A stretch of 9,235 nucleotides of DNA from Promethearchaeota archaeon (GCA_048938295.1 JBHLMI010000048.1:1-9235), one strand, 5' to 3'. Numbered from the stretch's first letter, positions 56 through 9,235 are shown. Notes: generated by a model from the letters alone, not told the origin. Translations and numbers: made by a program.

Positions 56-946
56 TTAGAGGTAGGTTTCGGGTTCTTTTCTGTCGGGGTAGCCTTTGTG
101 TAGATCGCTTTGTGATTTGAGAACGCGTTTGCTCATGACCCGTGCGCCGGTGGGACAGTTTTTGACGCAGGCACAGCACCAGATGCATGCATTATGGTCG
201 GTGGTAATCAACTGCAGGTTGTATCCGATCATGGGGGATGGATTGGATGACACATGTTGAATTCGAATTGCAGCAGTGGGGCAGACGTCTACGCACGTGC
301 CGCATTTGGTGCATTGGTCTTCATTGGTGGAGGGGGTGGCTAATGCGCCGTAGTCGTACCAGGTGAGATTGGCACGCATGGATAACGAGTACGGGGTTGT
401 ACCAGGAGGAGTGACGGGGGAGAGGTCCTCCATGGTATCGACCTGTGCATATTTGTCCCGGATTTGTTGGCCAAACGCTTTGGCTTTGGCGAGATCTTTT
501 GTGTCAGGTCGTCCATGGGCTGTAGGTACTTCAGGGACGCTAAAGGAGTGTTCGCATAGAAAAACCCCTGCAGCGATGGGTTGGAATCCCACCTCGGAGA
601 CAATGTCGCCTAGTTCATAGAGTGCGTCCTCGTAGGCGCGGTTGCCGTAGGTGACGACAATGACGACTGGGATTTTTTGTGCCCGTTTAGCTCCATAGGG
701 TTCCCTGTTACCTGTGAGTCGTCGGATCCGGTAGGCGGCTTCGGTGGGGACGCGTCCGGCGTAGACGGGCACGGAGATAATGGCGAGCTCATCGGTGAAT
801 TCCTTAAATTGCTGGGTGCGTGCACTGGGCGGAGTCAGGTCTATGTGTTCTATGGGGGCTTGGATGCCTTGGGCGATAGCTTCAGCTACCTTCCTTGAGC
901 CCCCGGTTGGAGAGAAACTGATGACTTTAACAGCTCTAATTTTCAA
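56..946 (-). CDS. Flavodoxin-domain / 2x[4Fe-4S] ferredoxin fusion protein (EFR1-like family)
   Basis: N-terminal flavodoxin-type motifs FSPTGGSRKVA, VPVYAGRVP, YGNRAYEDAL, EHS and GRPD. C-terminal CxxCxxCxxxCP motifs CTKCGTCVDVCP and CIWCCACVKNCP. TTG start with GAGGT 8 nt upstream. Confidence 0.9.
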   Translation of the reverse strand: MKIRAVKVISFSPTGGSRKVAEAIAQGIQAPIEHIDLTPPSARTQQFKEFTDELAIISVPVYAGRVPTEAAYRIRRLTGNREPYGAKRAQKIPVVIVVTYGNRAYEDALYELGDIVSEVGFQPIAAGVFLCEHSFSVPEVPTAHGRPDTKDLAKAKAFGQQIRDKYAQVDTMEDLSPVTPPGTTPYSLSMRANLTWYDYGALATPSTNEDQCTKCGTCVDVCPTAAIRIQHVSSNPSPMIGYNLQLITTDHNACIWCCACVKNCPTGARVMSKRVLKSQSDLHKGYPDRKEPETYL

Positions 947-1089: not shown

Positions 1090-1208
1090 GTCTTCTAATG
1101 ATTTCGCAGTTTTCTAATATGTGCTTTTCCAGTGAAGAAGTTTTATCTGCCCTGGCTTTGTGGAATCTGTATTGAGTATTGATTTTGCATGAATTGGTGG
1201 AGTTTGTT

Positions 1209-1556
1209 ATGGCGTTGATTGATACGGCGAAAATCTTGGCGAAGGCGGGTTCCATTGTGTGTATCATTTTAGGGATTCTTGCTGGTGTGTTGAATGGTCT
1301 TGTGATGTATGAAGAGTTTAGTGGACGGCATGGTATTGCTGTTGAGACTACTCTGTGGTTTTCATTAGCGATTGTCGCGGTGGTCTTCGGGTTCATTATT
1401 CTGTTCTATTGTGTGCCGAGGATCGACCAGGATCGGCAAACAGCAGCCATTTATCTGATTATTTTTGGTGTGATAGCGGCGATTGGTTCGTTCCTTGTCG
1501 GTGGGGTGTTAATATTCGTCGCAGGAATTTTGTTGGCGGTGGAGCAAGCGCGCTAA
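1209..1556 (+). CDS. Small integral membrane protein (about 115 aa, 3-4 hydrophobic helices), function unknown
   Basis: The listed ORF 1179..1556 has a better start at ATG 1209, preceded by GGTGGAG. Long hydrophobic stretches, and it is the sole long + strand ORF between repeats 2 and 3. Confidence 0.8.
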   Translation: MALIDTAKILAKAGSIVCIILGILAGVLNGLVMYEEFSGRHGIAVETTLWFSLAIVAVVFGFIILFYCVPRIDQDRQTAAIYLIIFGVIAAIGSFLVGGVLIFVAGILLAVEQAR

Positions 1557-1700
1557 TTGAACGAAGCCTAATAACCTGATGACGTGGGCATTGAGCTCGT
1601 AAATATCCCAAGCCAATTTTGTTAACGATGTGACTTTAGCCTCCCAACTCTTCTGAGGGATTCCTTGCAATGGACAGCTTGGGAGCCTTTTGTGCGATAC

Positions 1701-1769
1701 GGGAGCGGTTGTATCACTCGGAACACAGGTCCTGTAGACTATCCGTTGGGGTGGACGACCACTTTTTTT
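1701..1769 (+). repeat. Array repeat copy 3
   Basis: GGGAGCGGTTGTATCACTCGGAACACAGGTCCTGTAGACTATCCGTTGGGGTGGACGACCACTTTTTTT. Also shares the upstream flank TTTTGTGCG..ACG (1688-1701) with copy 2 (1013-1026). Confidence 0.95.
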
Positions 1770-1817
1770 GCTAGGTTTTAGGATGGCAAGAGTAATTAGA
1801 AACTAAAGAAGAATAGG

Positions 1818-2921
1818 TTGAGTGGTGTTGGTATGGCACGTGTGGGGTTGGTGGTTTGTTTCATGGGGCTATTGTGGGTTTCGTTGATGGGGGGGCTTCC
1901 GGGGGGAATGTTCGGTGTTGGTGCGGTGGAGGCGCAGAGTGGGGGGTTCAATTTTGTGGCTTATGGGGATACGCGGTCGCATGAGCTTCCGGCGGCGGTG
2001 TCACCGGTGCATGATGGGTTGGTGGCGATGTATCTTGGAGAAAATCCGGAGTTTGTGTTGCATACAGGGGATATGGTGATGGCGGGAGGGATCTGGGATC
2101 AGTGGGTGGAGTTTAACGATTCGATTCAAGGGATTTGGGCGGCAGGAATTCCTTTCTATGGTGTGGTGGGAAACCACGAAAAATACACGGGAACTTGGTA
2201 TGTGTATGATGAGGGATTGAACAATTATACCACCTTTTTTGATTTCGGTGATGCAGTGGATGTGCCCGGTGAAACAGAATTACAGTACGCTTTCACTTAT
2301 GAGGGCGTTCATTTCGTGTTCTTGAATACCGAGGATTACTTCGACGATATGTTTGGGGGTACGCAGCAGTTTAACTGCTCAAGTGGGCAAATGAATTGGT
2401 TATCCAGTTATTTGGTGACTGTCGATCCCGAGGAGTTTCTTGTGGTAACGTTTCATCGCACCGCTTGGTCCATTCTCTTTGATCAACCAAATCGCTGGGA
2501 GGAAGCGCAAACGATTCGTGATGACTTCCATGACCTGTTTGTGCAGTACGATGTCGATTTAGTCTTAATGGGCCATGATCATTATTATTATCGCACTCTG
2601 CGGGATGGGATCTATTATGTCACGACGGGGGGTGGAGGAGGCCCACTGGCAGAAATTGATGTGACGGCTCCGATTTGGCAACCAGGTGATGTGGCCGCTT
2701 CGGAGTACCATTACTGTAACATCAAAGTGAATTCCACCGATGTCACCGTGACAGCATACACATCCGACCACAGTCTGTTAGATTCTTTCAGTATTGAAAG
2801 ACCGAGTAACCCTCTCCCTGGCCCACCCATTGAACTTCTTGTCCTGGGTCTCTGTGTCGTTACCATCATTGTCATTATCATTGTCGTTGTTTTGATCCTC
2901 TATTGGCGAAGGAAAAGCTGA
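1818..2921 (+). CDS. Secreted, C-terminally membrane-anchored metallophosphoesterase (calcineurin-like superfamily, purple-acid-phosphatase-like)
   Basis: Five metal-ligand motif blocks: YGDTRS, HTGDMV, VVGNHE, VTFHR and GHDHYY. Hydrophobic N-terminal signal, Pro-rich linker, C-terminal TM helix and WRRKS tail. The start could be ATG 1833. Confidence 0.9.
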   Translation: MSGVGMARVGLVVCFMGLLWVSLMGGLPGGMFGVGAVEAQSGGFNFVAYGDTRSHELPAAVSPVHDGLVAMYLGENPEFVLHTGDMVMAGGIWDQWVEFNDSIQGIWAAGIPFYGVVGNHEKYTGTWYVYDEGLNNYTTFFDFGDAVDVPGETELQYAFTYEGVHFVFLNTEDYFDDMFGGTQQFNCSSGQMNWLSSYLVTVDPEEFLVVTFHRTAWSILFDQPNRWEEAQTIRDDFHDLFVQYDVDLVLMGHDHYYYRTLRDGIYYVTTGGGGGPLAEIDVTAPIWQPGDVAASEYHYCNIKVNSTDVTVTAYTSDHSLLDSFSIERPSNPLPGPPIELLVLGLCVVTIIVIIIVVVLILYWRRKS

Positions 2922-2948
2922 GGCCCGATACAATTAGCGCTATTGGAA

Positions 2949-2955
2949 TTTTTTT
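2949..2955 (+). terminator. Oligo-T tract (T7) 28 nt after the phosphoesterase stop; candidate archaeal-type terminator
   Basis: TTTTTTT directly downstream of TGA 2919-2921. Confidence 0.4.
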
Positions 2956-2995
2956 GTGTCCGATGAAAATTAATTGGATGTCCTGGAGTGGCCGA

Positions 2996-3058
2996 GGGAG
3001 CTTGGGTGTATTATTCGTGACAAGTTAATTACCGGGTTGCGGTGGACGACCACTTTTT
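2996..3058 (+). repeat. Array repeat copy 4
   Basis: GGGAGCTTGGGTGTATTATTCGTGACAAGTTAATTACCGGGTTGCGGTGGACGACCACTTTTT. Both arms are conserved and the centre is divergent. Confidence 0.92.
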
Positions 3059-3074
3059 GTTGATATTTGTGGGA

Positions 3075-3254
3075 TTATGCCTGTTCTTCGATGATCCAGA
3101 GGTGGCTGGTTTTGACTGAGCTGGGGAAATCGGGACCGATCGCGGGAATGATGGTGATGAGCGTGCCTTTGAGGGTGTTGAGGAAGTCCTCCAGTTTTTG
3201 TTTGTCGTGATTCATATCGATAGGGAGTTTGTGAACTTTGTAAGTTGACACCAT
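3075..3254 (-). CDS. 59-aa hypothetical protein missed by the ORF track: MVSTYKVHKLPIDMNHDKQKLEDFLNTLKGTLITIIPAIGPDFPSSVKTSHLWIIEEQA
   Basis: Hand-translated ATG(3254) to TAA(3075), 60 codons. SD GGGTGA at 3259-3264 and TATA TTTTTATAT at 3289-3297. It fills the unit between repeats 4 and 5. Confidence 0.85.
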   Translation of the reverse strand: MVSTYKVHKLPIDMNHDKQKLEDFLNTLKGTLITIIPAIGPDFPSSVKTSHLWIIEEQA

Positions 3255-3288
3255 TTACTCACCCAAGAGGTGTATCGGAGGATTGGAC

Positions 3289-3297
3289 ATATAAAAA
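3289..3297 (-). promoter_or_regulatory. Archaeal-type TATA box (TTTTTATAT) for the 59-aa gene
   Basis: About 35 nt upstream of ATG 3254, with a GGGTGA SD in between. Confidence 0.6.
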
Positions 3298-3317
3298 CTT
3301 GGAGTAGCGTAGACAAA

Positions 3318-3380
3318 GGGAGTAGGCGTATCACTTGGAAACACGGGTGTTTTTCGATTGGTTTGTGTGGATAACCATTT
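3318..3380 (+). repeat. Array repeat copy 5
   Basis: GGGAGTAGGCGTATCACTTGGAAACACGGGTGTTTTTCGATTGGTTTGTGTGGATAACCATTT. The short T-run overlaps the methyltransferase stop codon (3379-3381). Confidence 0.9.
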
Positions 3381-4035
3381 ACTTATCATGCGAGGTGTTG
3401 CGGGCATAGAGTTTCATATGCCAGATGAAGGTTTTTTGATGGACGAGTTGTGTGAAGCCGGTGTTTTTTAGCAGCGTGTCAATTGCTTTGACGGGGTGGA
3501 TGAAGGTTCGGAAGGGGTGGCGTCGTAGCCATAGGATGAAATTTTCCCATCCGATGGAGAGCTTGCTCGTTAAATTCGTCCGCGGGATTACGATGCCAAA
3601 GAATGTGCGAGCAAGGGCGGCGGATCGTTCAACGAGGGTTTGCCAATCGTCATAGCAACAGATTACTTTATCGAGGGTGACAATGTCGGTGGGGGAGAGG
3701 GTGGAGGCGATGTCGACGAAATCCCCATGATGGTAGCTAATGCGGTCCGTATGACCTTGTCGAGTGGCTTCCTCCTTTGTCGCTTCGATATAAGCCATGG
3801 AGGCTTCCACGTTAATGCTGTGGCGTAACCCAGCTTGTAGTAATTCGTGTTGAATTATGCCGATGCCACCACCAATATCGAGTAAGGTTTTTCCCTGGAC
3901 CCCTTGGCTTTTGAGGGCATCAACGAGTAGGTGCGTGGTTTTATTCATGCCCTTCACCCGATAGGTGCGGAGTTCCGCTTCAGCTACACTCCGATCGAAG
4001 GTCGTTTCAAGTACCTGATACTGACAACAGCCCAT
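3379..4035 (-). CDS. Class I SAM-dependent methyltransferase (substrate unknown; superficially BchM-like size and layout)
   Basis: Motif I LLDIGGGIG, acidic post-motif (VEAS), HGDF, and motif IV-like DIVTLDKVICCY. N-terminal MGCC. Confidence 0.88.
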   Translation of the reverse strand: MGCCQYQVLETTFDRSVAEAELRTYRVKGMNKTTHLLVDALKSQGVQGKTLLDIGGGIGIIQHELLQAGLRHSINVEASMAYIEATKEEATRQGHTDRISYHHGDFVDIASTLSPTDIVTLDKVICCYDDWQTLVERSAALARTFFGIVIPRTNLTSKLSIGWENFILWLRRHPFRTFIHPVKAIDTLLKNTGFTQLVHQKTFIWHMKLYARNTSHDK

Positions 4036-4120
4036 GATTCATGCTTCCATCTATTTAGGATAGAATAAGGTAACGCAACAAACTAGTTAATATCTCATTT
4101 GGAAAATCTGTACGGAAAGA

Positions 4121-4190
4121 AGCCTGGGTGTATTATGGCGTAAACATGGGTGCTGCACGATGCAGTTGGGACAGACGACCATCTTTCTTT
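4121..4190 (+). repeat. Array repeat copy 6
   Basis: AGCCTGGGTGTATTATGGCGTAAACATGGGTGCTGCACGATGCAGTTGGGACAGACGACCATCTTTCTTT. Centre hairpin CTGCA-CGA-TGCAG. Confidence 0.88.
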
Positions 4191-4342
4191 CAAGATGAAT
4201 TAGTCTCATAGTTTAGAAGAATAACACCCCGGTCTTTGAAGGCGCATCTCATAGAAATGAAGTTATTAGTATCTCAACTGACATTAAGGAGTGAAATTCA
4301 GCTCTACCAAGAATAGATGGAGGCGTTCCTCTGTCACAGTTT

Positions 4343-4960
4343 ATGAATGGAGAAAGAGTGAAGCCGAATCAAGTCCCGTATTTGGTTGCGTTTTTTGCCA
4401 GAGAGTATATGCCCAAAATAAAGGCGTTTCTCGAGACGGAGTATCCGACTCGTCAAGAAGGCGTAGAGGGGTTCACAACCGTGATGCGGGCAATTTATCC
4501 GCAGGTCTATCAGTTGCAACAGCAGTTACCCGAATCCCTAGCAGAAGAGATGATTCTAGAGCTTCCTGCGTTTATTAGTCTTCATGAGTGGGAGAAAGAG
4601 CCCAGAACATGGAACAAGGGAAAGAAAAAGGCGCTCACCGCGTTTCTGGAAGGACACGAGACGCCTGCCGATGAGTACGGGAATCCTGAGTTTCTTAGTG
4701 GTATGTTTGTCTCGATTATGATGTTATTGAATTCAACCTATAAGGGGCTAATCTCGCTAAGAGGTCTTTGCAGCAACTTCGAAGATGCCGTATACACTGA
4801 ATCCTATTTTAGCTCAGTTTATCATCAGTTTGAATATGAGATTTTTGTCAAAGGGCTCCTCAAAACCCTTAGCGATCTCAGAGGAATTCTTCCGTTAATC
4901 TATGAGATTGAGCGAAAACTCGCACTGTATCCACCCACTGGGGAACTGGAAAAGATGTAG
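4343..4960 (+). CDS. Hypothetical 205-aa soluble, probably helical protein; no family recognised
   Basis: Longest ORF between repeats 6 and 7, with protein-like composition and no recognisable motif. Confidence 0.75.
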   Translation: MNGERVKPNQVPYLVAFFAREYMPKIKAFLETEYPTRQEGVEGFTTVMRAIYPQVYQLQQQLPESLAEEMILELPAFISLHEWEKEPRTWNKGKKKALTAFLEGHETPADEYGNPEFLSGMFVSIMMLLNSTYKGLISLRGLCSNFEDAVYTESYFSSVYHQFEYEIFVKGLLKTLSDLRGILPLIYEIERKLALYPPTGELEKM

Positions 4961-4993
4961 GGAAACTAGAAAAAAGTACTACCTTTCAATTAA

Positions 4994-5061
4994 AGCCTAG
5001 GATTGTATGTCTGAACAGCAGGAGTTGTAGGATCCTCTGGCATGGACGACCACTTCTTTTT
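4994..5061 (+). repeat. Array repeat copy 7
   Basis: AGCCTAGGATTGTATGTCTGAACAGCAGGAGTTGTAGGATCCTCTGGCATGGACGACCACTTCTTTTT. Right arm intact, centre contains palindrome AGGATCCT. Confidence 0.85.
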
Positions 5062-5120
5062 CCCTTCGGTATTCTCCAAGCGGGGAAGTGTTAGTATGAC
5101 AGATGTTGGGAAGGACCTCT

Positions 5121-5163
5121 GCTGCAACCTTTAAAATGCAGCTCGCCAAAAACGAGAGAAAAA
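5121..5163 (-). terminator. Candidate terminator region downstream of the DUF4256 gene
   Basis: Minus strand has two T5 tracts (5148-5152, 5159-5163) and an inverted repeat GCTGCA/TGCAGC (5121-5142). Confidence 0.35.
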
Positions 5164-5189
5164 GCGTTGAAATTCGAAAATGTCAGAGT

Positions 5190-5756
5190 TTAGACTCGTA
5201 GCGAGCCGCGGAAGGCTCTAGAGCTATAGTATGAAGGCGCACTGTTGTGATAGACGAAGACGGTGTTGTAGCGGCGATCGCAAAAGAGGGCGCCGCCGAG
5301 TTTTCTGATATCAGGAGGGGTTTTTATCCAGCTTGAGGTCTTCGCATCGAACTGTCCGAGTTTCTGTAACGCTCGATATTGATCTTCGGTTAGAAGCTCA
5401 ATGCCCATAGCGGTGGCCATATCGATTGCGTTATTTTTTGGTTTCGCTGATTTCCGTGCGTCCTGCGCTTCACGGTCGTAGCAAACATTTCTGCGGCCTG
5501 TTGGAGTTTCTGGTGAACAATCATGAAAAATGTATTCACCCGTCTTTTTATCATGACCCACAACATCTGGTTCACCGCCAGTTCGTTCCATTTCGTTGAG
5601 TGACCACAGTTTGTCAGGATTCGCTTTCAACTTTGTTTGGATGTTAGCCCATTCAATCCCTTGATGGCGGTTCATATTGTTCTCAAAGCGGGCTTTCAAC
5701 ACGCGGAGTAGTTCTTCATGTTGTTTTGGTGACAACTCCTTTTTGAGTTTGCTCAT
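5190..5756 (-). CDS. DUF4256 family protein
   Basis: Recognised by family-typical strings: LKARFENNMNRH, LWSLNEMERTGGEPDVVG, RRNVCYDREA, MGIELLTE.QYR.LQKLG.FD.KTSSW, GGALFCDRRY..VFVYHN, RAFRGSLRV. Confidence 0.9.
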   Translation of the reverse strand: MSKLKKELSPKQHEELLRVLKARFENNMNRHQGIEWANIQTKLKANPDKLWSLNEMERTGGEPDVVGHDKKTGEYIFHDCSPETPTGRRNVCYDREAQDARKSAKPKNNAIDMATAMGIELLTEDQYRALQKLGQFDAKTSSWIKTPPDIRKLGGALFCDRRYNTVFVYHNSAPSYYSSRAFRGSLRV

Positions 5757-5778
5757 ACTCTGTAGTAATCGTCCCGTG

Positions 5779-5787
5779 TTTATAAAA
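5779..5787 (-). promoter_or_regulatory. Archaeal-type TATA box (TTTTATAAA) positioned for a leaderless DUF4256 transcript
   Basis: TATA centre about 26 nt upstream of ATG 5756, with no SD motif in between. Confidence 0.65.
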
Positions 5788-5942
5788 GCATCAACGCAAG
5801 GGTGACATTGACTTTCTAGCGTATGATCATGTAAAAGATAATAGCTCTATTTTCGTCAGAAAGGCATTAAAGCATACGCTTGGAAACCAAGTTCTTCTAG
5901 AGGACCCAGTGAGGATACCAGGGGAGATGATGTGTGCTGTAA

Positions 5943-5979
5943 GGAGTCTGGGTGTATGATGGTGGAAACTCGAATGTTG
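5943..5979 (+). repeat. Array repeat copy 8 (left half recognisable; right arm degenerate or lost)
   Basis: GGAGTCTGGGTGTATGATGGTGGAAACTCGAATGTTG aligns with copy 6 (CTGGGTGTATTATGGCGTAAAC). The expected GTGGACGACCAC-T-run is not recognisable at about 5990-6005, where the next gene's stop lies. Confidence 0.7.
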
Positions 5980-6003
5980 GAAGCCAAAATTTCATATGAT
6001 GCC

Positions 6004-6822
6004 CTATTGACGGAATTTGGGGAAATGGAGTTTGCCTTCTTGTTTCAGGTAGGAAAAGATCATGAGAACAAAGAGAACAATGGTGATGCCAACAAAAATG
6101 ATGGTGGAAATAACTGAAAACAATTCAAGAGGAGGAGGGAAAAGAGGAATCTGAGGTCCTGTGACCCGGCAGTAGTTTATGTAGAGTTGGGCATCAGGTT
6201 TTCCAGGGGCTTCGATTAGCTGCCAGTGGATGCGATAGTGGTGATAGGTGGCGTTAATATTAATTAGATCATGGGTGATGGTGGTGTAGTTGGTCCAGTA
6301 ACCGGGAGTTTCATTGATGTGTGGGTGGAGGGTGAGGAGATAGGAGTGAGTACCGTTCGGGAGAGGGGTGTCTGATGTGATGCTGGCGTTGAGCCCATAA
6401 AGTAGGATGAGGGCGGACGGTCCGGTGGCGCAACTTCGAAACTGGATGGTGACTTGGTTGATGTCCAAGGGGATGAAGTCTTGCCAGAACATAATGGTGT
6501 GCTCTTGGTTTGCGCGGGTGGGTTGCAGGAACAGGGTATCAGCATCTCCACCATTTTCGGTATCATTGATGAGATGGTATTGTTCTTTGGGTCCGGTGGT
6601 ATCGCCGGTAAAATGCCAGAAGGCGGGTTTAGTTGCGTTATGATCATTACCCTCCCAGCCACCAGGTTCTGTTATGGTGAAATCCCAATTGGCTACTAAA
6701 TCAACGGGAACAGGAAGTTGCTTTGACGCCCTAGAGAGAGGAACTTGGTTAGTTATCGGCGTCAGGGAGAATATGGTCAGTAAACTAATCAGGAGTAGAC
6801 AGGTTGTGAGCGATTTTTTCAT
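6004..6822 (-). CDS. Secreted / C-terminally membrane-anchored hypothetical protein (272 aa), probably beta-rich extracellular domain
   Basis: Signal peptide MKKSLTTCLLLISLLTIFSL, several N-x-S/T sequons (NATK, NDTE, NASI, NGTH, NETP no, NYTT, NATY), PPPLEL then a TM helix and basic tail. SD GGGTGA at 6829-6834. Confidence 0.82.
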   Translation of the reverse strand: MKKSLTTCLLLISLLTIFSLTPITNQVPLSRASKQLPVPVDLVANWDFTITEPGGWEGNDHNATKPAFWHFTGDTTGPKEQYHLINDTENGGDADTLFLQPTRANQEHTIMFWQDFIPLDINQVTIQFRSCATGPSALILLYGLNASITSDTPLPNGTHSYLLTLHPHINETPGYWTNYTTITHDLININATYHHYRIHWQLIEAPGKPDAQLYINYCRVTGPQIPLFPPPLELFSVISTIIFVGITIVLFVLMIFSYLKQEGKLHFPKFRQ

Positions 6823-6975
6823 TCCTTTTCACCCGCTGGAGATGCTATTTCACCGCTGGAATGTGAGGATAAATGTTCTTTACCGGTTTAAAGAACGCAT
6901 TGGTCCTTATGTGAATATAAAGAAAAGATTGAGAAAAACCGAATACACCATTTCGTGCAGGACCCCTCAAAGATT

Positions 6976-7027
6976 GAGCCGAGAATGTCAATGACCATGA
7001 GTTGATTGGAGTTGACGACCACTTTTT
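6976..7027 (+). repeat. Array repeat copy 9 (shortened centre)
   Basis: GAGCCGAGAATGTCAATGACCATGAGTTGATTGGAGTTGACGACCACTTTTT. The right arm GACGACCACTTTTT is exact and ACCATGAGT is shared with copy 10. Confidence 0.8.
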
Positions 7028-7081
7028 GTATGCTATTTTTTAACTTGGATGTCTTATATGTGATAGGTCGACGAGGAGGCC

Positions 7082-8869
7082 TTGTGTACGTCAACTGCTG
7101 TGCTCATGAAGTTGTTGGAAACAGCGCCGTGGCGCTATGACCAGGGGATTGATTTTCTCACACTGGGTGTTGATTCGAAGCTTAAAAAACGGATTGCAGA
7201 TGAATTTATCTTTCCGTCGGATGATGTTCTTGAAATAGGGAGTGGAACGGGTTCCTTGGCGTTGTTGTGTGCCCAGAAAGGGGCGCAGGTGATGGGCATT
7301 GATGTATCACCTACAATGATTGCATTAGCTCAAACCAAAGTGGCGAAGGCCCGGTTGTCGGATCGGGTTCAGTTTCGGGAAATGGACCTGACGGAAATTG
7401 ACCAGTTGCCCGATGCCTCCTTTGATGTGGTGATTGCCACCTTGGTGTTTAGTGAATTGTCGGAGGTGGAGCAGTTTTATGCGCTCCGTGAAGCGTGGCG
7501 GCTGCTTCGCCCAGAGGGACGGCTAATCATTATGGATGAAGTTCGACCCCAATTGCTCCGCAAGATGCTTCCCTACTACATGTTACGTGTCCCTCTCACA
7601 ACATTCACTTTTCTATTGAGCCAAACAACGACCCATCGGGTGAAGAATCTCGAAACAAAGCTCGAAATATCCGGATTTCGAATTACCATGCAAGAGCAGC
7701 ATTTACTAGATTCGATTATGTTACTCGTCGCCACCAAACAACCCCAACGACCCATTGAAGCAGCAGGTCCTCGTCTGTTTCCAACGGTTCACGTTGGATC
7801 ACGAATGAAGTATGTGGCTGAAACTATTTTTCGTTGGGTAGGTGTCCCTATCACACCCGGGTATATCGCTGTGGGACAGCCCTCCGATGAAAGCCCTGTT
7901 CTAGTCACATGCAATTATGACTTGACGGTTCGCCGCGTTCTAAAAACACTTCAACACGCACAGGTTGATTGCTTTCTACTGGTAGCTCCAACTCGGGGAA
8001 TCAACGTGTGGTGTGCCTCTTGTGGTGGAGATTTTACGGCACACTCCGTTATCGCGGCAATCAAGCTTAGTGGCATTAACAACCTGGTGCAGCACCGACA
8101 TTTGTTTCTACCTCAACTGGCAGCACCGGGAGTTGACCCCGATGTGATTAAGGAGGAGACGGGATGGTCAGCACAGTTTGGACCAGTGAAAGCCAAAGAT
8201 ATACCCACCTACTTGAAGAATGGAGCACAGAAAACCGAGGCCATACGCACTGTACGATTTCCGGTGTCAAAGCGCTTAGAAATGGCAAGTCTATATGCGA
8301 TCATAATTTCACTCCTTGCAATCCCCATCAGCCTAATCTTTGCACCCCCCAAGCTCCTCACGACCCTAGGAATCATTTGGCTGCTTATCTGCGGTGCCTA
8401 TCTTCTTTCGCCATATCTCCCGAGTAGATCTGGGTTCGTGAAAACGCTGGTGTATGGCATCTGTGCCATCTCCGTTGTCCTACTTGTGGCCCTTTATACC
8501 ACGGGGAGCCTGTTAGGATTGCCATGGGAACTTCTTCTAACGATTCTTGTTTTGCTAATCTTAGGGGTTGATTTCAACGGGATGACTCCGATACTACCCA
8601 GCGACCTCGGTCGTCTACTCTATGGCCGAGGTCACTCAGAAATGCCCTTCTTCACAGGAAAGTATCCGCTTCAACCCTATGGACGAATCACCGAGGATGT
8701 GGAGTCATGTATTGGATGTGGGATGTGCGTACAAGTCTGTCCAAGGAATGTCTACCAGTTAGATAAAGCAAGACGTAAGGCGGATTTAATACACCCCAAG
8801 GACTGTGTCAACTGTAATGCTTGTGTTCATCGATGCCCCGCACATTGCCTTCACATTATCAAATCATGA
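7082..8869 (+). CDS. Fusion: class I SAM methyltransferase + HgcA/CdhD-like corrinoid-binding domain + ~4 TM helices + HgcB-like 2x[4Fe-4S] ferredoxin (HgcAB-like fusion with N-terminal methyltransferase)
   Basis: EIGSGTG motif I in a UbiE-like N-terminus. SPVLVTCNYDLT, TRGINVWCASCGGDFT and LPQLAAPGV match the corrinoid domain of the HgcA/CdhD family. A hydrophobic block follows, then CIGCGMCVQVCP (8708) and CVNCNACVHRCP (8804). The exact start (TTG 7082 vs ATG 7106) is uncertain. Confidence 0.85.
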   Translation: MCTSTAVLMKLLETAPWRYDQGIDFLTLGVDSKLKKRIADEFIFPSDDVLEIGSGTGSLALLCAQKGAQVMGIDVSPTMIALAQTKVAKARLSDRVQFREMDLTEIDQLPDASFDVVIATLVFSELSEVEQFYALREAWRLLRPEGRLIIMDEVRPQLLRKMLPYYMLRVPLTTFTFLLSQTTTHRVKNLETKLEISGFRITMQEQHLLDSIMLLVATKQPQRPIEAAGPRLFPTVHVGSRMKYVAETIFRWVGVPITPGYIAVGQPSDESPVLVTCNYDLTVRRVLKTLQHAQVDCFLLVAPTRGINVWCASCGGDFTAHSVIAAIKLSGINNLVQHRHLFLPQLAAPGVDPDVIKEETGWSAQFGPVKAKDIPTYLKNGAQKTEAIRTVRFPVSKRLEMASLYAIIISLLAIPISLIFAPPKLLTTLGIIWLLICGAYLLSPYLPSRSGFVKTLVYGICAISVVLLVALYTTGSLLGLPWELLLTILVLLILGVDFNGMTPILPSDLGRLLYGRGHSEMPFFTGKYPLQPYGRITEDVESCIGCGMCVQVCPRNVYQLDKARRKADLIHPKDCVNCNACVHRCPAHCLHIIKS

Positions 8870-8934
8870 ACGTAAAATGATGGAACCATGAGTGTTGTAG
8901 ACGAACTGTGGCGGTTGATAGCCACTTTCTTTTT
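8867..8934 (+). repeat. Array repeat copy 10
   Basis: TGAACGTAAAATGATGGAACCATGAGTGTTGTAGACGAACTGTGGCGGTTGATAGCCACTTTCTTTTT. The left end coincides with the fusion gene's TGA stop. Confidence 0.78.
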
Positions 8935-9045
8935 CAAAAAAGATTGATGGGGAGAATACGGCTGAACTCGTTGTGGTGAGCATATTAGGCAAATTATTTC
9001 TGGGGGTTGTCGTGTAGTGGGTAAAGGTAGGTGGTTGGTTCGTTG

Positions 9046-9235
9046 ATGGAGATTACGTTGGGTGTGTTGTTTTGGGGGTATGTGATGGCGTACTGTGTGC
9101 ATGTCGTCGAGGAAGCGGCTGTGGGTGAAGGGTTCATTGAGATGATGCGTACCACCTTTCATCCAGACTATACGGGTCGGATGTTCTTTGGATTTAACCT
9201 CATGATTTTTTTGGTGTTTGTCGCTGGGATTGTAG
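9046..9235 (+). CDS. HXXEE-domain membrane protein, 5' part only (runs off window)
   Basis: Hand-translated open frame MEITLGVLFWGYVMAYCVHVVEEAAVGEGFIEMMRTTFHPDYTGRMFFGFNLMIFLVFVAGIV... has HVVEE after a hydrophobic helix. In-frame TAG at 9028 bounds it upstream. Confidence 0.8.
   Translation, partial: MEITLGVLFWGYVMAYCVHVVEEAAVGEGFIEMMRTTFHPDYTGRMFFGFNLMIFLVFVAGIV

Follow-up and report, generated by a model that had tools for sequence, protein, structure and literature searches.

We identified a strand-composition sawtooth in a cassette array of an Asgard archaeon, in which G and T on one strand jump at each boundary repeat and relax downstream over approximately 0.5 kb. It is very probably a repeat-anchored, polar mutational footprint, and we did not find a prior description of such a repeat-anchored strand-skew sawtooth in the literature. 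The scar is large (an 8–10-fold G:C shift), sharply anchored, and reproducible over approximately 150 repeats, two array families, and about a dozen species. Local strand-asymmetric scars are among the few sequence-only records of the sites and directions of recurrent DNA opening or copying, and this one provides a quantitative handle on the building and shuffling of Asgard cassette arrays (start point, polarity, and 0.5-kb run length). The accessory genes of the arrays are recoded, amino acids included, by their place relative to a boundary, and this position-dependent recoding matters whenever codon usage, gene transfer, or dating is analysed in these genomes.

Results

The cassette array and its boundary repeat

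The window (9,235 nt) is an entire contig of an archaeal MAG and carries ten one-gene cassettes, five on the + strand and five on the − strand. The cassettes are parted by a repeat of approximately 72 nt, all copies of which are co-oriented. This repeat reproduces the 16S rRNA 3′ trailer, is rich in G clusters, and has a terminal hairpin GTGGACGACCAC followed by a T-run. Contig C48, which is distinct from the window contig, carries the same repeat joined to the genome's own 16S gene, and the array starts approximately 55 nt past that gene. Searching the window against Rfam (E<=1) gave no family matching the repeat. The copies in the window were located with an nhmmer profile:

1–32, + strand: repeat copy 1, 3′ part only, truncated by the contig end; hairpin GTGGACAATCAC and T-run (profile match)
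1022–1091, + strand: repeat copy 2 (E=4.9e-15)
1697–1769, + strand: repeat copy 3, canonical GTGGACGACCAC and T7 (E=8e-15)
2994–3060, + strand: repeat copy 4 (E=6.7e-7)
3314–3385, + strand: repeat copy 5 (E=2.5e-12)
4115–4189, + strand: repeat copy 6 (E=1.1e-11)
4988–5060, + strand: repeat copy 7 (E=1.3e-6)
5940–6012, + strand: repeat copy 8, degenerate, only the 5′ half recognisable, without hairpin or T-run (E=3e-4)
6958–7029, + strand: repeat copy 9, only the 3′ core recognisable (E=0.013, same strand)
8858–8932, + strand: repeat copy 10 (E=1.4e-6)

The 16S leader and trailer are compositionally complementary, with CGTCCACC in the leader opposite GGTGGACG. Pairing of the leader with the trailer repeat was predicted at −83.6 kcal/mol at one locus (L015) vs. 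−73.9 ± 5.8 for shuffles, a z of only about −1.7, and a processing stem between the two is plausible.

The ten cassette genes, with the GC4 skew or the gradient of each, are as follows:

56–946, − strand: gene 1, flavodoxin-like/4Fe-4S protein; + strand GC4 skew +0.68, flat along the gene
1179–1556, + strand: gene 2, small membrane protein; GC4 skew +0.62
1818–2921, + strand: gene 3, calcineurin-like phosphoesterase; clearest single-gene gradient
3075–3254, − strand: gene 4, 59-aa ORF; + strand GC4 skew +0.53
3379–4035, − strand: gene 5, SAM methyltransferase; + strand GC4 skew +0.48
4343–4960, + strand: gene 6, without Pfam family; weak gradient, 10/16, 10/20, 5/13
5190–5756, − strand: gene 7, DUF4256; + strand GC4 skew +0.41
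6004–6822, − strand: gene 8, without Pfam family; gradient 21/23, 27/32, 15/22
7082–8869, + strand: gene 9, methyltransferase-CdhD-4Fe-4S fusion; gradient 16/22, 18/33, 10/26, then baseline
9031–9235, + strand: gene 10, truncated by the contig end; GC4 skew +0.43

Strand skew restarts at each repeat

The preliminary description had reported the sawtooth from hand counts of G/C, which match a 120-nt composition table exactly (38/12 at 1201–1320, 21/34 at 2701–2820, and 53/10 at 9001–9120). Re-examination at 4-fold degenerate third positions, a check set beforehand, showed that the gradient persists there and is even stronger, which tells against amino-acid composition as its source. In the window, the repeat-strand G:C odds at 4-fold sites jump approximately 10-fold at the T-run edge (amplitude 2.33 log-odds) and decay exponentially with a length of 492 nt until the genome baseline is reached, for + and − genes alike. 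The 4-fold repeat-strand GC skew of + genes is 0.79, 0.55, 0.43, 0.00, and −0.18 at 0–150, 150–300, 300–450, 450–600, and 600–800 nt past the repeat, respectively, and that of − genes is 0.70, 0.64, 0.52, and 0.45 with growing distance. The fitted far skew is −0.21 in + genes and +0.11 in − genes; the genome coding mean is −0.21. At the 4-fold sites of the phosphoesterase gene, G/(G+C) is 31/31, 16/21, 17/31, and 8/24 per 300 nt. With all sites counted, GC skew rises abruptly at the repeat to a maximum of 0.42 at +50–100 nt and has returned to 0.05–0.1 by 600–800 nt.

Within-gene permutation in the window gave z=5.7 overall (p=0.0002), with z=5.1 for + genes (z=2.45 when the phosphoesterase gene was left out) and z=2.5 for − genes. 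When the repeat positions were shifted circularly, the observed early-minus-late contrast was attained in 1% of shifts. As first described, the skew restarts at each repeat, runs from it in one direction only, and is indifferent to gene direction, being seen in + and − cassette genes alike; it is absent on the approach to the next repeat and on the upstream side of the repeats. The first unit hardly decays (25/29, 26/32, 33/39), also as noted before. Downstream of the degenerate copy 8, the skew is strong nonetheless, with G at 21 of the 23 4-fold G/C sites within 300 nt of it.

The attribution of the skew to mutation also held. G and T increase jointly, as raised C>T plus A>G on the + strand would give, and the T:A odds (amplitude 0.66–0.73) rise alongside the G:C odds. 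The effect is larger at 4-fold and third positions than at first positions and larger at first than at second positions, the order expected from mutation pressure filtered by selection, and intergenic DNA is skewed as well. Ordinary genes of the same genome show no gradient along their length, and their coding GC4 skew is −0.18 to −0.25.

Other arrays and control loci

Approximately 65 further units at 13 loci in nine congeneric genomes gave the same curve as the window (amplitude 2.07, length 502 nt), and within-gene permutation at these other 16S loci gave z=14 (+ genes 11, − genes 8). Separate fits to all 16S arrays, including the window, gave lengths of 465 nt for + genes and 497 nt for − genes, and early skew exceeded late skew in 33 of the 39 testable units, the window included (p=1.4e-5). 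A second array family has a repeat unrelated to the 16S one, consisting of the last ~20 actin codons, the stop, a hairpin, and a T-run; the hairpin sequences of the two families differ. These actin-tail arrays lie directly 3′ of the actin gene, co-oriented with it, and ten such loci showed a like curve with an amplitude of 1.53 and a length of 474–670 nt.

Amplitude and decay were equal across units of 300–800, 800–1300, 1300–2000, and 2000–4500 nt; they are set by absolute distance from the repeat (~0.5 kb), not by unit length. This result does not support the earlier proposal that each unit is processed on its own, and the fixed ~0.5-kb decay argues against whole-unit rolling circles. Single-stranded circles of whole cassettes, with the second strand primed at the repeat, are disfavoured because the amplitude is no larger in longer units. 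The amplitudes at ranks 1–4 of one array (L005) were 0.74, 0.32, 0.60, and 0.94, with no drop along the array, and repeat integrity did not correlate with downstream skew (Spearman −0.02, p=0.9). Silent-site divergence between orthologous cassettes was 0.34–0.42 near repeats vs. 0.29–0.37 far from them, without a consistent or detectable increase towards the repeat, in a weak test since only a ~1.5-fold rise is expected.

Ordinary terminators are excluded as the cause, since the 496 genes with a T5+ run at most 100 nt past the stop had an excess skew of 0.00–0.03 at every distance. The 47 strongly codon-biased genes in this set had an excess of 0.03–0.11 without a gradient. A third co-oriented repeat family (60 nt, contig C66), which is not terminator-like, showed no flanking gradient. 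Transcription of the cassette genes themselves is also excluded, because − genes carry the G and T excess on their template strand and reach its peak at their 3′ end. Beyond the 23S rRNA gene, which has a trailer terminating in a similar ACGACCAC and T-run, a suggestive gradient was found, with an excess skew of approximately 0.45 at 400–900 nt (44 sites only) and 0 further on. A group-4 hydrogenase/Nuo-like operon lies beyond the last repeat in three genomes; its large subunit begins at least 724 nt from the repeat and has a codon profile that is unchanged in orthologues without an upstream repeat. The G fractions of the 30-kDa subunit gene were 0.46–0.53 beside repeats vs. 0.24–0.50 without them in an underpowered comparison. 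Eight-gene windows genome-wide had an SD of 0.12, vs. 0.40 for the window contig.

Recombination at the repeats

Congeneric genomes share cassettes that are 75–94% identical and differ in order, and in sediment-metagenome contigs the window cassettes are joined to different neighbours with junctions exactly at repeats. The shuffled order and the placement of the junctions indicate that recombination at the repeats is real. One further metagenome joint, which skips 1257 (1766 to 3024), has 20 nt on one side and is not trustworthy. No RNA run was listed as containing the window sequence. No nicking enzyme, HUH/Rep protein, IS200-type Y1 transposase, or reverse transcriptase was found in the 91.6%-complete MAG, and its only two tyrosine-recombinase-like genes are both away from the array. 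The best match in this MAG to the IntI-specific domain (NCBIfam TIGR02249) scored 87 + 63 bits, under the cut-off of 265, and is a 313-aa Xer-like recombinase on a different contig. An attC site is an imperfect inverted repeat (R″-L″...L′-R′) that forms a long hairpin when single-stranded; folding of the ten copies on both strands gave no such repeat-spanning hairpin, the only stems being one of 4 bp (GTGG/CCAC) and a small internal one, and for the attC core GTTRRRY the repeat offers only the core-like word GTTGGGG or GTTGCGG. The cassette array is no canonical integron.

Discussion

Most likely, a polar process at each repeat exposes or re-synthesises the sense strand. We tentatively favour, as its likeliest driver, DNA synthesis that would be primed from a 3′ end at the T-run edge. 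Each repeat, as the tail copy of a highly expressed host gene, would mark the start of a one-directional event that proceeds downstream, following the sense orientation of the host gene, and stops stochastically after a mean run of approximately 0.5 kb. The sense (+) strand would meanwhile be single-stranded, with C deaminating to U and A to hypoxanthine; alternatively, it may be re-synthesised with G·T mispairs. Either route would raise both C>T and A>G on the + strand, and arithmetically a ~4-fold increase in these rates reproduces the 8–10-fold G:C and 2-fold T:A odds shifts. The 3′ end could be provided by a site- or structure-specific nick made by the recombination machinery of the array, or by a nascent or invading strand paired with another repeat copy (D-loop, copy-choice). 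As this end is extended, the sense strand in the cassette downstream would be displaced or replaced, and cassette shuffling may arise from those same synthesis events. The analysis shows the footprint itself, with its polarity, length, specificity, and tie to the repeats; exposure or resynthesis of the sense strand is what we infer, and a nick or primer at the repeat and the tie to recombination are speculative. Since the two families have different hairpins, a single sequence-specific enzyme is unlikely, and any trigger would need to recognise structure, unless terminator function is itself the trigger. Because the skew is unrelated to repeat integrity, a slow-fading fossil or a low-sequence trigger fits at least as well as ongoing site-specific nicking. 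A broader scheme, in which terminator-like repeats are start sites of DNA synthesis (from a structure-specific nick, a nascent strand switching between repeat copies, or a terminated transcript in an R-loop) and copy-choice or the D-loop itself shuffles the cassettes, is unlikely in our estimation. If true, the arrays would be the Asgard counterpart of an integron without an integrase, seeded by tail copies of the most highly expressed genes, and the skew would be a lasting signature of cassette-shuffling synthesis.

The strongest competitor of primed synthesis, although itself rather doubtful, involves R-loops: sense transcripts crossing or ending at the repeats would re-anneal to the template and leave the + strand single-stranded for a few hundred nt downstream. 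The hybrid would be nucleated by the repeat RNA, which is G-rich and untranslated, deamination would add G and stabilise later R-loops in a positive feedback, and in one variant the 3′ end of the hybridised RNA would prime DNA synthesis. Such a process is consistent with the position of both array families, each of which lies immediately 3′ of a very highly expressed gene in the same orientation (16S rRNA or actin) and has the terminator of that gene as its repeat, and with the abundance of G clusters in the 16S-trailer repeat, the lack of skew at the non-terminator-like third family, and the excess skew 3′ of the 23S gene. Terminal GC skew and R-loops at gene 3′ ends are known in eukaryotes, and the single-strand occupancy that spontaneous deamination needs, estimated at approximately 1–2%, could be supplied by a persistent structure. 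However, ordinary terminators, those of strongly codon-biased genes included, are without a gradient, half of the cassettes are transcribed in the opposite direction, and the skewed zone persists past the degenerate repeat that lacks a hairpin and T-run. The amplitude also does not drop with rank, and ten of ten window units are skewed though the contig is not beside the 16S gene; read-through from the strong promoter cannot supply all copies. If the trigger is a terminator or R-loop, it would tie eukaryotic termination-zone GC skew to the archaeal relatives of eukaryotes. We consider it improbable that the skew is instead a fossil of the first array position, where cassettes inserted at the real 16S or actin terminator would have been scarred on the non-template strand by read-through fading over ~0.5 kb, before newer insertions shifted them down the array. 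The start of the arrays immediately after the 16S and actin genes, the indifference of the skew to current repeat integrity, and the small suggestive gradient past the 23S gene would suit such a history. Yet a near-equilibrium skew (an 8–10-fold shift in G:C odds) requires on the order of one substitution per silent site, while order varies among congeners whose shared cassettes are 75–94% identical; the amplitude does not decrease with rank, and nothing is seen behind other strongly codon-biased genes.

Selection could maintain G and T enrichment of the sense strand in the first 0.5 kb of each cassette as a functional element, for example, as a pause or termination zone insulating the cassettes, or by freeing the repeat hairpin from competing pairing. 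The pattern is preserved across species and both array families, and G-rich pause zones past terminators are known in eukaryotes, but this explanation is quite improbable: the effect is graded across 500 nt, follows the third > first > second order of codon positions, affects intergenic DNA equally, moves G and T jointly in the ratio that two transitions predict, and incurs amino-acid changes. Silent divergence by the repeats is not lowered, unlike under constraint. Ordinary causes, namely replication-strand skew, mis-binned foreign DNA, or amino-acid composition such as signal peptides, are scarcely credible, although the whole contig is an outlier (GC skew 0.183), as a mis-binned one could be, and hydrophobic segments begin several + genes. 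Replication-type skew has one sign over tens to hundreds of kb and switches only at the origin and terminus, whereas this one resets every ~1 kb and returns to the baseline of its own genome; it is seen at 4-fold sites and also in − genes, whose 3′ ends are the skewed portion, the repeat also occurs on the contig with the genome's 16S gene, and the pattern was found again in nine congeners. A double-strand break followed by resection was rejected, because the skew is one-sided and would, by inference, have the wrong polarity for a deaminated surviving 3′ tail.

Among known systems, vertebrate mitochondrial DNA and APOBEC-edited retroviral cDNA (with its twin G>A gradients) carry gradients of single-strand exposure. 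The array resembles them in its silent-site, deamination-type transitions, which enrich one strand in G+T, are graded from a fixed start, and reset at the next. Their gradients scale with the time that a replicon segment spends single-stranded, whereas the amplitude in the array is independent of unit length, which speaks against exposure of whole units. The array starts also lie ~1 kb apart in a cellular chromosome, unlike in mitochondrial or retroviral replicons. GC skew associated with transcription and R-loops occurs at eukaryotic promoters and terminators and in immunoglobulin switch regions; there too the non-template strand is G/T-rich over about the first kilobase, and G-rich DNA and R-loops reinforce each other. 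Unlike this skew, the polarity in the array disregards the transcription of the cassette gene, and ordinary terminators of the same genome are unskewed. Double-strand-break hot spots share a mutational scar of a few hundred bp adjoining a recombination site, but break-and-resection gives mirror-image skews on the two sides, whereas the array is skewed on the downstream side only.

Integrons, which have attC sites and IntI and are also known in archaea (Ghaly et al. 2022, PMC9668308), likewise have one gene per unit, co-oriented repeats, and shared cassettes in a different order, and they recombine at the repeats using a single-stranded attC strand. Unlike integrons, the array has no long imperfect hairpin of the attC type and no IntI above the family cut-off, and its repeat is the 3′ tail of a host gene with a terminator. 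Archaeal integron cassettes are “generally in the same orientation” (PMC9668308), while the array genes are divided 5/5 between the two orientations; one ORF per unit does match. The word “skew” is absent from the text of that report (PMC9668308). GRINS are duplicated stretches of >500 bp with >80% identity within a cluster and a mean absolute GC and TA skew of >0.15; they lie inside bacterial PKS genes with both skew signs on one strand, by a mechanism that is unknown (2021, PMC8256042). They share with the array local, intense, and correlated GC and TA skews in coding DNA, recoded proteins, and a link to recombination or gene conversion. The skew of the array reaches the intensity of GRINS, but the cassette bodies are unduplicated and only the ~72-nt repeats recur. 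Unlike in GRINS, the skew in the archaeal array is a one-signed exponential ramp that starts from a short repeat and runs through unique cassette sequence.

A cassette array bounded by copies of the 16S trailer

The window is the complete contig C31 of a 2.52-Mb archaeal MAG in 66 contigs (hereafter G000). It holds ten single-gene units, with five genes on each strand, whose functions are unrelated. Their products are the following:

flavodoxin/4Fe-4S protein
calcineurin-like phosphoesterase
methyltransferases (two)
DUF4256 protein
proteins without a family (several)

The units are divided by a co-oriented repeat of ~72 nt, which ends at its 3' side in a small hairpin, GTGGACGACCAC, and a T-run. 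Contig C48 of the same genome carries this repeat together with an archaeal SSU rRNA gene (Rfam), and the 16S gene lies directly upstream of the array start in three loci (C48 and two congeners). Because the array starts right after the 16S gene, and the first copy begins ~55 nt past the mature 16S 3' end (...GGATCACCTCCT), the repeat is a copy of the 16S 3' trailer with a terminator-like end. C/A-rich words complementary to the repeat are present in the 16S leader, and the pre-rRNA processing stem may therefore have the master copy as its 3' half; the energy of the leader/trailer-repeat duplex is only 1.7 SD better than that of shuffles. The repeat has no match in Rfam. A profile search recovered ~70 more copies at 13 loci in nine congeneric genomes; within any one locus, all copies face the same way.

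Large insertions are present in the 16S rRNA genes of the genus, as seen in C48 (1-1450) and in locus L015 (619-4212), where the 16S copy spans 3.6 kb. In C48, a 183-aa ORF lies within the 16S gene (181-729) and a further insert is located close to the 3' end. These insertions are probably rRNA introns.

Many of the window cassettes were found again in congeners at 75-94% identity, in different order and context. Contigs from sediment metagenomes link window cassettes to other neighbours precisely at the repeats: they diverge from the window exactly at the repeat edges 1016, 1061, 1747, 3061 and 4105 and enter other cassettes, and those at 1061 go on as the C48 repeat copy 2964-3037. The stretch shared by the alternative joints is ~22 nt (GGGGTGGACGACCAC plus the T-run). 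These exits indicate alternative cassette orders within the population. The array resembles an integron in layout and behavior, but the defining features of an integron are absent. The repeat was rejected as an attC site, and genome searches gave no integron integrase above the family cut-off. Two proteins resembling tyrosine recombinases are encoded in G000, in contig C32 (33.3-34.0 kb) and contig C33 (7.5-8.0 kb). The archaeal integrons of Ghaly et al. 2022 (PMC9668308) are canonical attC/IntI arrays whose cassettes are co-oriented, and that paper's text nowhere uses the word "skew".

Strand skew restarts at each repeat

The preliminary description had claimed a sawtooth strand skew that resets at each repeat independently of gene direction, and its 120-nt G and C counts were correct on recount. 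The contig is a compositional outlier, with a GC skew of 0.183 and an AT skew of -0.105, compared with about +/-0.03 for most contigs. After each gene was corrected for the coding-strand preference of the genome (skew at 4-fold degenerate sites, GC4, mean -0.21, SD 0.24), all eight called window genes moved towards G on the + strand, by 0.40 on average, where 8-gene windows have an SD of 0.12. GC4 skew of the repeat strand declines with distance from the preceding T-run edge, and this gradient persists at 4-fold sites in genes of both orientations. An exponential fit put the amplitude at 2.33 log-odds (10-fold G:C odds) and the decay length at 492 nt, and its asymptotes lie near the genome baseline (+ genes, -0.21; - genes, +0.11). 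Since tails of ~0.5 kb occur in units of ~1 kb, the contig-wide skew is largely their sum.

The sawtooth is confirmed at high significance and is replicated in other arrays of the 16S-trailer type and in a second array type in the genus, the actin-tail family. The actin-tail repeat consists of the last ~20 actin codons, the stop codon, a different hairpin (GGGAGGC..GCCTCCC) and a T-run, and the skew curve of these arrays runs in the actin sense direction. Among the proteins of G000 is an actin whose C-terminus is eukaryote-like.

Skew gradients downstream of boundary repeats
Window, within-gene permutation, all genes: z = 5.7
Window, within-gene permutation, + genes: z = 5.1
Window, within-gene permutation, + genes minus the phosphoesterase: z = 2.45
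Window, within-gene permutation, - genes: z = 2.5
Window, circular boundary shifts matching the observed contrast: 1%
13 other 16S-trailer loci, + genes, successive distance bins: 0.59, 0.56, 0.35, 0.23, 0.02, -0.10
13 other 16S-trailer loci, - genes, successive distance bins: 0.80, 0.70, 0.62, 0.49, 0.44, 0.35, 0.32, 0.23, 0.17
13 other 16S-trailer loci, permutation: z = 14
13 other 16S-trailer loci, fit: amplitude 2.07, length 502 nt
All 16S arrays including the window, decay length: 465 nt (+ genes), 497 nt (- genes)
Units with early skew above late skew, window counted: 33 of 39
Actin-tail arrays, ten loci in G000 and other genomes: amplitude 1.53, length 474-670 nt

The signal is one-sided, being at baseline on the left approach to the next repeat. 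Counted over all sites, GC skew stands at 0.05-0.1 ahead of the repeat, rises abruptly there and reaches its maximum of 0.42 at +50-100 nt, is halved by about 350-400 nt and regains baseline at 600-800 nt; the first 50 nt past the T-run are AT-rich (37-40% GC). T/A climbs alongside G/C, less strongly (amplitude 0.66-0.73, ~2-fold odds). Intergenic DNA is also skewed, and within codons the effect ranks position 3 > 1 > 2. The cassette proteins are therefore being recoded. Amplitude and decay are equal across unit lengths of 300-800, 800-1300, 1300-2000 and 2000-4500 nt. Amplitude does not drop as rank behind the 16S gene increases, and the skew shows no dependence on repeat integrity.

Ordinary genes, which were checked for similar gradients, keep a flat profile from one end to the other. 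Where an ordinary gene is followed by a T-run terminator (496 genes), the DNA beyond it has an excess skew of 0.00-0.03. The 47 of these with the strongest codon bias, taken as a proxy for expression, have an excess of 0.03-0.11 downstream and no gradient. Generic terminators are excluded or disfavored as the cause, as are replication skew and the cassette genes' own transcription.

Possible mechanisms

The skew very probably reflects a polar mutational pressure anchored at the 3' edge of the repeat, rather than coding or selection. The run of the underlying process is stochastic, ~0.5 kb. Suppose that both C>T and A>G become f-fold more frequent on the + strand; by our own arithmetic, f squared then equals the G:C odds shift multiplied by the T:A odds shift, and the observed shifts of 8 and 2 give an f of about 4. 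The two shifts are unequal, as an AT-biased background predicts. Spectrum and polarity together could be read in two ways: the + strand would be displaced and then deaminate, or it would undergo repeated rightward re-synthesis with G.T mispairs. Either reading would need an R-loop that begins at the repeat or a 3' end that is extended from it.

Nick-primed or D-loop-primed synthesis tied to recombination at the repeats is our leading candidate for the driver, held tentatively at somewhat below even chances: genome searches found no enzyme for it, the hairpins differ between the 16S-trailer and actin-tail families, and the skew is indifferent to repeat integrity. R-loops formed at the repeats rank second and are rather doubtful. 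Next comes a fossil of heavy read-through dating from array position 1, which we consider improbable, and selection, in fourth place, is slightly more improbable still. A double-strand break with resection is disfavored because it would give a mirror-image skew of opposite polarity, and whole-cassette single-stranded circles are disfavored because amplitude would increase with unit length. The general idea of the preliminary description, a process launched from each repeat, is supported; its proposal that the array is processed unit by unit is not.

The nearest published case of intense local GC and TA skew linked to recombination is GRINS, long duplicated segments in bacterial PKS genes that show both skew signs and whose mechanism is unknown (PMC8256042). 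The nearest mechanistic analogues of the present gradient are the single-strand gradients of mitochondria and retroviruses and the R-loop skews near promoters or terminators. A full-text literature search, judged by titles and abstracts, returned no description of such a gradient.

Other repeat and skew loci

A third co-oriented repeat family is present in G000 contig C66 (15771-44805), where eight elements of ~60 nt (TTTCGAAGACATACATGCCT...GATGTGAAAGA...) lie between accessory genes. These elements are not terminator-like and have no skew gradient on either side. The 23S trailer (contig C20, about 44700-44859, minus strand) ends in GGGGTATACGACCACCACTTTCTTTTT, which is similar to the core of the 16S-trailer repeat, and its end, ACGACCAC plus a T-run, resembles the end of that repeat. 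The gene after the 23S has a sense-strand excess of ~0.45 at 400-900 nt and none beyond, a suggestive observation from 44 sites only.

In the actin-tail array of contig C18, 10 of the 12 called genes past the first actin-tail repeat oppose the actin direction. The skew there is 0.6-0.8 over ~1 kb and then 0.45-0.55; in the 16S arrays the decay is faster. Contig C62 (1-18822) is a domain of skew in which no boundary repeats are visible: the ~18 kb that follow ribosomal protein S19 are strongly enriched in G at 4-fold sites of the S19 sense strand, with an excess of 0.7-1.2 between 0.6 and 2 kb and of 0.5 out to 8 kb, and neither copies of the S19 tail nor other repeats were detected in it. Its gene content looks accessory (HTH protein, beta-propeller and FKBP). 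The short, strongly skewed contig C37 has a 51-nt direct repeat (273-323 and 2467-2517, 80% identical) on either side of a gene for a 636-aa protein without a known family, whose + strand GC4 skew is +0.77; it may be another array fragment with yet another repeat.

In each of the four metagenome runs, the DUF4256 cassette gene (depth signal at 5237-5852) has a summed contig depth ~10-fold above that of the rest of the window (300-480 versus 15-50), and its best-supported variant places have 6-18 variant contigs per run. Near-identical copies seem to be carried by other organisms that are more abundant in these sediments, and the cassette is a candidate for recent cross-lineage transfer. The congeneric genome G004 has two copies of the hydrogenase operon, and in its contig C164 a 16S-trailer repeat copy (1088-1148) lies 55 nt 3' of the gene for the hydrogenase large subunit; the array in this genome may have taken up an operon that is normally chromosomal.
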